Shown here: piece after piece, positions 4,975 to 39,501 of the stretch
Numbering within the stretch: the stretch's first letter is position 1
Layout of the letters: every line of letters begins with the position of its first letter
NCBI GenBank assembly: GCA_964347045.1
Contig: CAYFXC010000015.1
Location: 1-48,225, forward strand
Reading direction: 5' to 3'
Origin: an uncultured archaeon
Lineage (GTDB): Archaea; Asgardarchaeota; Hermodarchaeia; Hermodarchaeales; Hermodarchaeaceae
Length of the DNA stretch: 48,225 nucleotides
Position numbers and translations under genes: made by a program
Notes under the pieces: generated by a model
Seen by the model: the letters and a program-made list of their open reading frames with translations, nothing else
What the model was told of the DNA's origin: nothing
The model's database searches: none

Positions 4975-5082
4975 TGGTGGGCCGGGCGTGAATTGAACAC
5001 GCGACCTCCGCCGTTTCCTCGCATCCAGCCTTTCAAGGCTTAATCCTGTGAGAGCGGCGTCATACCACTAGACTACCGGCCC
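4975..5082 (-). tRNA. tRNA-Val(CAC) with a 33-nt intron (about 5015-5047), encoded CCA
   Basis: GGGCCGG/CCGGCCC acceptor stem + ACCA; D arm GTC/GAC; anticodon stem CCGCT/GGCGG with loop CT-CAC-AC after splicing; T arm GCGTG-TTCAATT-CACGC. Confidence 0.92.
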
Positions 5083-39066: not shown

Positions 39067-39151
39067 TTTATCAGAAACTCCAATTAATAGATTGAGTGCG
39101 CGTTTAGCCTTCCCGGTATATAGCTCTTATTGATGGTTTTCAGAAACTAGC

Positions 39152-39163
39152 AAACGTTTAAAA
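39152..39163 (+). promoter_or_regulatory. Putative BRE/TATA promoter of tRNA-Leu
   Basis: AAACG-TTTAAAA about 25 nt upstream of 39187-39188, which would give a leader of about 10 nt before G39197. Confidence 0.55.
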
Positions 39164-39196
39164 TGCTCAGGAGTTAATCTTTGCATCACCCTTATC

Positions 39197-39426
39197 GCGG
39201 GGGACCCTTCCGAAGGGGGTCTTTGCCGCCAAACCGGTGGCGGGGGTATCTACATGTGTAGACCTCACAGCCAAGCCTGGTTAACGGCGCAGGAGTCACC
39301 TGGAATGGCAGGTTGACGGCGTTACTCAAGATCTAACCAGGTTCATGAGACATCCTGTCCGGCAGCGGTTCGAGGGTTCGAATGAGTGGTGCGCTGCGAG
39401 CTCCGAAATTCCCTCCCCCCGCACCA
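39197..39426 (+). tRNA. tRNA-Leu(CAA) with 4 (probably 5) BHB introns
   Basis: Exons 39197-98, 39242-47, 39269-93, 39324-30, 39352-82, 39410-26 join to GCGGGGGTAGCCAAGCCTGGTTAACGGCGCAGGACTCAAGATCCTGTCCGGCAGCGGTTCGAGGGTTCGAATCCCTCCCCCCGCACCA: an 88-nt class II cloverleaf with A73 and CCA. If the first intron is not used, the gene starts at 39240 with the same mature sequence. Confidence 0.93.
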
Positions 39427-39501
39427 TTGTCCATCGTTACCTTTTTGACTGTAAGTTCCCTAGCTTGTATAACTGATTTCCGTCTCCACGGGGCTAATTC
39501 C

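Follow-up and report, generated by a model that had tools for sequence, protein, structure and literature searches.

Multi-intron tRNA genes of the Thermoproteales were reportedly described by Sugahara et al. in 2008. A 2014 review gives three introns per gene as the maximum for the Thermoproteales (PMC4033280). In Asgard archaea, 92–95% of the tRNA genes in the complete genomes of Atabeyarchaeia and Freyarchaeia have introns and over half have several (2024, PMC11291895). In an October 2026 preprint covering 90 Asgard genomes, Goswami et al. report as many as five intervening sequences in one gene and find that tRNAscan-SE misses 30% of them (10.64898/2026.10.13.758758). Asgard archaea have a loop-bearing (alpha-beta)2 splicing endonuclease EndA, the type that cuts relaxed motifs (PMC5829648).

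The tRNA-Leu(CAA) gene analyzed here is from an Asgard archaeon of the Hermodarchaeia and is a new member of this published Asgard phenomenon. It is from the same phylum as the genes in the two Asgard papers and resembles them in having several introns of ~20–30 nt at non-canonical positions and in being missed by annotators. Those papers treat another class, the term 'Hermod' being absent from the main text of the 2026 preprint, and they place insertions in the acceptor stem and at junctions under 'other'. Neither PMC11291895 nor the main text of the preprint mentions a duplicated acceptor strand, a leader or RNase P. The Thermoproteales genes are also similar, with introns of the BHB and relaxed BHB types at many sites, 30/31-like and T-loop ones among them, and an (alpha-beta)2 EndA with a specific loop; however, they belong to another phylum and have at most three introns, compared with four here. 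Four introns per gene exceeds the long-quoted archaeal maximum of three, and the picture of heavily interrupted Asgard tRNA genes now extends to Hermodarchaeia. An earlier interpretation made from the DNA letters alone (the sequence-only reading) knew of no archaeal report of five introns, a point overtaken by the 2026 preprint. It also proposed an unrecognised multi-intron tRNA system; many tRNA genes in this lineage are indeed interrupted, but heavy interruption in Asgard archaea was already published in 2024.

The window, the whole stretch of 48,225 nt that was analyzed, is contig 15 of a 2.58-Mb metagenome-assembled genome that is 89% complete and has 43% GC (genome G000 below). Removal of the four introns listed in Table 1 results in an 88-nt tRNA-Leu(CAA) that is accepted by ARAGORN. 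The identical 88 nt are obtained with or without removal of a further segment, positions 39199–39241, because the sequence GCGGGGG is present twice (starting at 39197 and 39240). The ARAGORN cloverleaf of the spliced sequence displays a 7-bp acceptor stem, A73 and an encoded CCA, and the 14-nt variable arm, discriminator A73 and anticodon CAA are those of a class II tRNA-Leu. Intron removal restores the canonical cloverleaf, with junctions that read as in uninterrupted paralogue and orthologue sequences. The CCA is in keeping with the genome as a whole, where it directly follows 22 of 23 complete Rfam tRNA matches. The sequence-only reading had all of these coordinates right, as well as the product of either removal and the four splice motifs that it quoted, including the one mismatch at 30/31.

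Table 1. Features of the tRNA-Leu(CAA) locus and its flanks (positions in the window)
Feature	Position	Strand	Remarks
TATA-like box TTTAAAA	39157–39163	+	~34 nt upstream of first GCGGGGG
Upstream copy of acceptor 5' strand, GCGGGGG	39197–39203	+	proposed decoy for acceptor 3' strand CCCCCGC
Structured leader insert	39204–39239	+	two hairpins; homologous to tRNA-Leu(UAA) leader insert
Exon 1, tRNA nt 1–8 (GCGGGGGT)	39240–39247	+	8/8 columns invariant
Intron 8/9	39248–39268	+	21 nt; strict hBHBh'
Exon 2, tRNA nt 9–30	39269–39293	+	22/25 columns invariant
Intron 30/31	39294–39323	+	30 nt; relaxed motif
Exon 3, tRNA nt 31–37	39324–39330	+	7-nt micro-exon with anticodon CAA; 7/7 columns invariant
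Intron 37/38	39331–39351	+	21 nt; canonical position
Exon 4, tRNA nt 38–59	39352–39382	+	anticodon 3' strand, variable arm, T-stem 5' strand, T-loop; 28/31 columns invariant
Intron 59/60	39383–39409	+	27 nt; strict hBHBh'; T-stem is the outer helix
Exon 5, tRNA nt 60–73 and encoded CCA	39410–39426	+	17/17 columns invariant
T5 run, probable transcription terminator (from sequence)	39442–39446	+	within conserved 3' trailer

The gene is invisible to ARAGORN and Rfam, as the sequence-only reading had anticipated for standard scanners. ARAGORN reports none in the unspliced window and its intron search also misses the gene, and Rfam finds only another tRNA, at 4978–5082. This blindness of ARAGORN and Rfam to Leu(CAA) shows why the tRNA sets of such genomes look incomplete. 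No other archaeal-type Leu(CAA) was found in the assembly, a check that the sequence-only reading had asked for. The Leu set consists of the CAA gene described here, UAA (C1:238k), CAG (C1:9.8k, two introns), GAG (C1:100.9k, one intron) and UAG (C33). Several candidates for a second copy were rejected. The sequence at 4975–5082 on the minus strand of the window, called Leu(caa) by ARAGORN with the -i option, is really a class I tRNA-Val(CAC) with a 33-nt 37/38 intron, and the ARAGORN Leu(caa) at c29722–29845 of contig C7 is really a tRNA-Gln(CUG). A blast match at C1:48129–48151 has no tRNA structure. A fragment of a bacterial-type Leu(CAA) is found at the end of the 1948-bp contig C74, which none of the 12 congeners searched contains; this contig probably entered the bin as a contaminant. 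An ORF on C74, read by eye, is one we take to be HTH plus PTS-EIIA-like. Similarly, the 2183-bp contig C68 ends in a bacterial-type Phe(GAA)-like tRNA fragment and is also probably a binning contaminant.

The Leu(CAA) locus is present in 19 of 19 family genomes (Hermodarchaeia, two genera; 14/14 same-genus and 4/4 sister-genus). In an alignment of 18 species, with identities given relative to the source genome, exons are 98–100% identical within the genus and 95–100% identical in the sister genus, whereas introns are 76–89% and ~50% identical, respectively. Genome G002 is without the 8/9 intron exactly at the predicted junction, where GCGGGGG is followed by TAGCCAAG with nothing in between. 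The paralogous tRNA-Leu(UAA) of the source genome (C1:237965–238117, minus strand) is uninterrupted at 30/31, 37/38 and 59/60, and there it reads as the spliced Leu(CAA) with the exception of the anticodon base. The exon changes in the D-loop of exon 2 covary with the 37/38 intron, and in the variable arm of G016 a C-to-A and a G-to-T change occur as a pair. Exact matches to exon 4 were found in 15 public contigs, about half of them named Hermodarchaeota, Hermod or Ca. Hermodarchaeum yapensis; the others are labelled Promethearchaeota, Odinarchaeota or Thorarchaeota, which are taken as naming differences. The double-copy plus 8/9 layout, searched with Leu-specific sequence, is present in 19/19 family genomes and in 0/381 other Asgard genomes searched.

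The four splice motifs were compared in 18 loci each, for 8/9 all those that have the intron. The 8/9 motif is GGGG/CCTC with bulges GT^A and AC^A, and its central helix, GGGG with CCYC, has 4/4 pairs in every locus. The inner helix shows compensatory changes (TCTAC/GTAGA, TCTCC/GGAGA and TCTAG/CTAGA), and the last bases of the leader make up the 5' half of the outer helix, TGGC/GCCA. The 59/60 central helix, TTCG with CGAA or CGGA, likewise has 4/4 pairs in 18/18 loci, with an invariant 5/5 outer helix and compensatory changes in the inner helix. The 37/38 central helix is CTCA/TGAG, or has GGAG with 3/4 pairs; it is 4/4 in 10 loci and 3/4 in 8. In this locus the 30/31 motif is CGCA/GGCG with one A-G mismatch, and in 18/18 loci the central helix has 3/4 pairs, always three base pairs plus an A-G or A-A mismatch. 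It has no outer helix but a strong covarying inner helix, in which three pairs are changed on both sides, and represents a relaxed, HBh'-like motif.

A BHB-like pattern by itself is cheap, as a relaxed scan gives 232 candidates in 290 nt; the 59/60 and 8/9 motifs are ranked first and second among these 232. The pre-tRNA structure was therefore scored as a whole, i.e., the helices of the four motifs (outer, central and inner) together with one hairpin of the leader and the D-loop/intron helix (intron 4 in the scoring). In the proposed helices 94.2% of cells are paired, compared with 32–50% when the partner strand is slid by 1–3 columns. Eight pairs show compensatory change, with 24 cells altered on both sides, and the covariation score is 0.122 as opposed to 0.018–0.049 for the slid controls; 0 of 500 shuffles reach 0.122. 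The motif and exon signal is far above chance, since exons are invariant across two genera while introns diverge and since the helices pair far better than the slid controls. The comparative sequence evidence confirms a real and conserved four-intron tRNA-Leu(CAA) gene that is probably functional, with exons conserved across the family genomes and BHB helices upheld by compensatory changes, the conservation in relatives that the sequence-only reading had called for.

It is possible that this gene is instead a decaying pseudogene whose insertions are debris, with UUG codons read by tRNA-Leu(UAA), which exists in the genome and could read UUG by wobble. We consider this highly improbable, as there is little or no variation in any of the five exons across 19 genomes, compensatory change upholds the splice motifs, and the promoter, CCA and terminator are conserved.

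The 30/31 motif occupies nt 25–28, and the anticodon stem is the outer helix of the 37/38 motif. Since the two compete by sharing nt 27–28, intron 30/31 would probably be spliced before intron 37/38. Automatic BHB-guided splicing, breadth-first and then best-first, solved most tRNA genes of the genome but not Leu(CAA), because the relaxed 30/31 motif ranks low and the 37/38 motif scores only after 30/31 is removed. In addition, the sequence TAACCAGG in the 37/38 intron (positions 39334–39341) is complementary to the D-loop sequence CCTGGTTA (39276–39283) of the same tRNA, and two pairs of this helix are changed on both sides within the genus. CATGGT is found with ACCATG in G006 and G002, and GGTC with GACC in G012; the pairing is lost in the sister genus. 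tRNA-Leu(UAA), which is without a 37/38 intron, has an anti-D-loop segment in its leader instead (GACTAAGC with GCTTGGTC). Such anti-D-loop pairing may hold the D-arm open before splicing.

The host encodes the splicing endonuclease for non-canonical motifs and the ligase. The EndA alpha subunit, encoded on C7, is 186 aa; it best matches the catalytic subunit (alpha) of the (alpha-beta)2 EndA from Aeropyrum pernix (E 6e-45), in an alignment that spans the region of the crenarchaeal-specific, broad-specificity loop. The EndA beta subunit is 199 aa, is without the catalytic His and matches beta subunits. The two subunits fit the EndA type published for Asgard archaea (PMC5829648). RtcB (571 bits) and an RNase P RNA are also encoded. 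The EndA beta gene (C1:239.5k) lies within a tRNA gene cluster at C1:236–241 kb that has several interrupted tRNA genes, including Leu(UAA) and a three-intron Met.

Semi-automatic splicing of the genome gave 38 tRNA genes, a partial set that was hand-checked only in part. Within this set 15 genes have no intron, 15 have one, six have two and one Met gene has three, so that the intron load is lower here than in the Asgard papers. A tRNA-Pro(CGG) gene (C1:41613–41812, plus strand) has four introns of ~30, 33, 31 and 29 nt, at the D-loop, 22/23, 37/38 and 59/60, and its approximate splice is accepted by ARAGORN. The four-intron Leu(CAA) is extreme for its genome, yet tRNA-Pro(CGG) is a second such gene.

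Upstream of the four introns is the 43-nt stretch 39199–39241, located between the two GCGGGGG copies. The upstream copy is 7/7 invariant in 18 genomes, and 0 of the 8 nt that precede it are invariant. The TTTAAA-type box is at the same distance from this copy in 19/19 loci, which have two types of upstream sequence, and transcription would start ~10 nt before 39197, judging from the usual archaeal promoter spacing. The leader can form a hairpin of G39203–C39207 with G39217–C39221 (93.5% of cells paired), the first base of which is the last G of the upstream copy. A second hairpin pairs 39225–39230 with 39236–39241, so that its final two bases are G1 and C2 of exon 1; the TGGC at the 3' end (39238–39241) can alternatively pair with GCCA (39270–39273) as the 8/9 outer helix (92.6% paired). 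BHB-like candidates inside the leader, 39206–39225 and 39226–39248, were rejected, as their removal would not give a tRNA.

An upstream copy of the acceptor 5' strand is linked to the 8/9 intron. In the source genome, each of the four genes with an 8/9 intron is preceded by a 7-mer that can form 7/7 pairs with the gene's own acceptor 3' strand, at distances of 43 nt (Leu-CAA), 42 nt (Leu-UAA), 13 nt (His, C7) and 17 nt (Ser, C59). Only 1 of 35 other genes has such a 7-mer within 60 nt, and there the copy is upstream of the TATA box. Fisher's test of the 7-mer against the 8/9 intron gives 6e-5; the four genes comprise two pairs, Leu CAA/UAA and His/Ser, within which the acceptor stems are identical, and may represent fewer than four independent cases. 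The copy and the 8/9 intron are jointly absent in G002 (Leu-CAA) and in G015 (His). The Ser gene (C59:1404–1552, plus strand) is a second one for tRNA-Ser(UGA); its upstream copy reads GTCGGGA, it contains an 8/9 intron and it lies on a 2.8-kb contig. It may come from another archaeon in the sample, and it is unusable for comparison because it has no counterpart in the 18 relatives.

The tRNA-His orthologues provide a comparison in which copy and real strand differ. Their real strand never varies, in contrast to the upstream copy (GCCGGGG, GCCGGGA, GCTGGGA and GCCGGGT), which differs only at two wobble-tolerant positions: position 3, opposite a G of the invariant 3' strand, and position 7, opposite a U. 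All changes but one keep the pairing with the acceptor 3' strand. This pattern indicates that the His copy is selected for pairing and not for membership in the mature tRNA; the copy would be outside the mature tRNA because it varies at wobble-tolerant positions while the exons are invariant. In the Leu genes decoy and real strand are the same in sequence, and the choice of the mature copy there rests on the analogy with tRNA-His.

Secondary structure was modeled with ViennaRNA ensembles for 13–17 orthologues per gene, with tertiary structure, proteins and temperature ignored. With the native leader, the mean pairing probability of the upstream copy with the acceptor 3' strand is 0.93–0.97 (0.96 for positions 39197–39203 of Leu(CAA)), that of the real strand with the acceptor 3' strand is 0.00, and that of the real strand with its central-helix partner in the intron is 0.58–0.96. 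With the leader removed, the real strand has values of 0.79–0.99 for the acceptor 3' strand and 0.01–0.05 for its intron partner. Replacement of only the upstream copy by AAUAAUA clearly affects folding in His but has little effect on the Leu genes, in which the remainder of the insert pairs with the D-arm as well; the complement is a poor control because it pairs with the real strand.

These properties point to a four-intron gene with a structured decoy leader, not a fifth intron, that would be removed by RNase P, and we regard this interpretation as likely. A precursor of ~250 nt would be transcribed from the TATA-type promoter, and its 43-nt leader would open with the decoy, a second version of the acceptor 5' strand. 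By pairing with CCCCCGC of the acceptor 3' strand, the decoy would leave the real nt 1–6 free for the 8/9 motif, in which real nt 3–6 are the central helix. After splicing, the real strand would displace the decoy and RNase P would take off the leader. Both the decoy role and the removal by RNase P are model-based proposals. The 8/9 intron can reach the endonuclease only if the GC-rich acceptor stem is opened, and this family appears to use a conserved spare leader strand for that purpose.

The sequence-only reading had counted four to five introns, and the four are well supported. The fifth would imply that the first GCGGGGG supplies the 5' end of the mature tRNA and that 39199–39241, or the same segment in another register, is removed by EndA at a relaxed or non-standard motif, giving a 43-nt circle with the junction ...GGTGGC/GGGGGACCC... 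We judge this five-intron gene to be distinctly improbable. It is consistent with the 4/4 central helix TATC/GGTG (two wobble pairs) and 5-bp outer helix in register 2/3 of this locus, with the invariance of the first copy, and with its location at the usual promoter distance, where the intron-free gene of G002 starts; a motif-free census such as that of the 2026 preprint would also count the segment as a fifth intervening sequence. However, when central-helix pairs were counted in eight registers (splice after repeat nt 0–7), no conserved BHB was found in any register among 18 Leu(CAA) and 13 Leu(UAA) loci. The mean is 1.2–3.0 of 4 pairs in registers 0–7, a 4/4 helix is present in 1 of 18 loci, this one, in register 2/3 and in none in the other registers, and the similar element in Leu(UAA) behaves alike. 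The motif would furthermore need leader bases that are not conserved. The invariance of GCGGGGG is equally expected from pairing with CCCCCGC, in which only position 2 could wobble, and the tRNA-His copy, which differs from the invariant exon, argues against the first copy as the source of the mature tRNA.

A four-intron gene with a passive leader also seems improbable. The copy would then be a duplication footprint from the arrival of the intron or insert, with no role in splicing, and would be trimmed by RNase P. The joint gain or loss of copy and intron also fits a single insertion or deletion, and the small effect of the in silico decoy mutation in the Leu genes is compatible with a passive copy. 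Another such footprint may exist in tRNA-Leu(UAG) (C33:9716–9935, minus strand), which is without an 8/9 intron; 99 nt upstream is a decayed second version of its first ~24 nt, GCGGGAG together with a D-arm-like sequence. Neutral footprints are expected to decay, but the copy of Leu(CAA) and Leu(UAA) is 7/7 invariant in two genera and two paralogues next to leader sequence that is 0/8 invariant. The retention of pairing by the tRNA-His changes and the 4/4 versus 1/35 association with the 8/9 intron also argue for the structured decoy leader.

The decoy may be viewed more generally as a cis-acting RNA chaperone in archaeal genes whose intron motif consumes the acceptor 5' strand; it would keep the 3' end in a substitute acceptor helix while the real 5' strand builds the splice motif, and would then be discarded by RNase P. 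In the Leu genes this device would have been elaborated into a conserved 43-nt structured leader common to two isoacceptors, with a second, anti-D-loop segment, which Leu-CAA has in its 37/38 intron and Leu-UAA in its leader. We lean only slightly toward this broader proposal. If the spare leader strand of this family does act in this way, intron position is constrained by the local motif together with helper elements outside the mature tRNA, and the leader would offer a simple, testable case of RNA-guided refolding as tRNAs mature in the archaea most closely related to eukaryotes. It is the conserved decoy leader that merits experimental study.

The split tRNAs of Nanoarchaeum equitans have complementary leaders, which assemble the splice motif in trans and are later discarded. 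The similarity is that non-tRNA flanks pair so that EndA sees a BHB and are then discarded. The N. equitans flanks, however, pair with each other across two transcripts and are part of the motif, whereas the leader proposed here would act in cis, would find its pairing partner outside the motif, in the acceptor 3' strand, and would be removed by RNase P instead of EndA. A decoy leader was not found in the multi-intron tRNA reviews searched, nor was a published description of this architecture found in the searchable literature.

The flanking regions show two further properties. The 3' trailer GTTACCTTTTTGAC is kept in both genera; the conserved part ATCGTTACCTTTTTGAC (39433–39449, T-run included) exceeds the need of a terminator alone. 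The upstream region, 39130–39196 in the window, has two unrelated promoter types among the 19 loci (L001–L019), AAACGTTTAAAA... and CCCGAAGCAGTTTTAAGC..., which form a mosaic among species of one genus. G002 has the first promoter type together with a gene body typical of the second group, a combination that suggests recombination at the Leu(CAA) locus.
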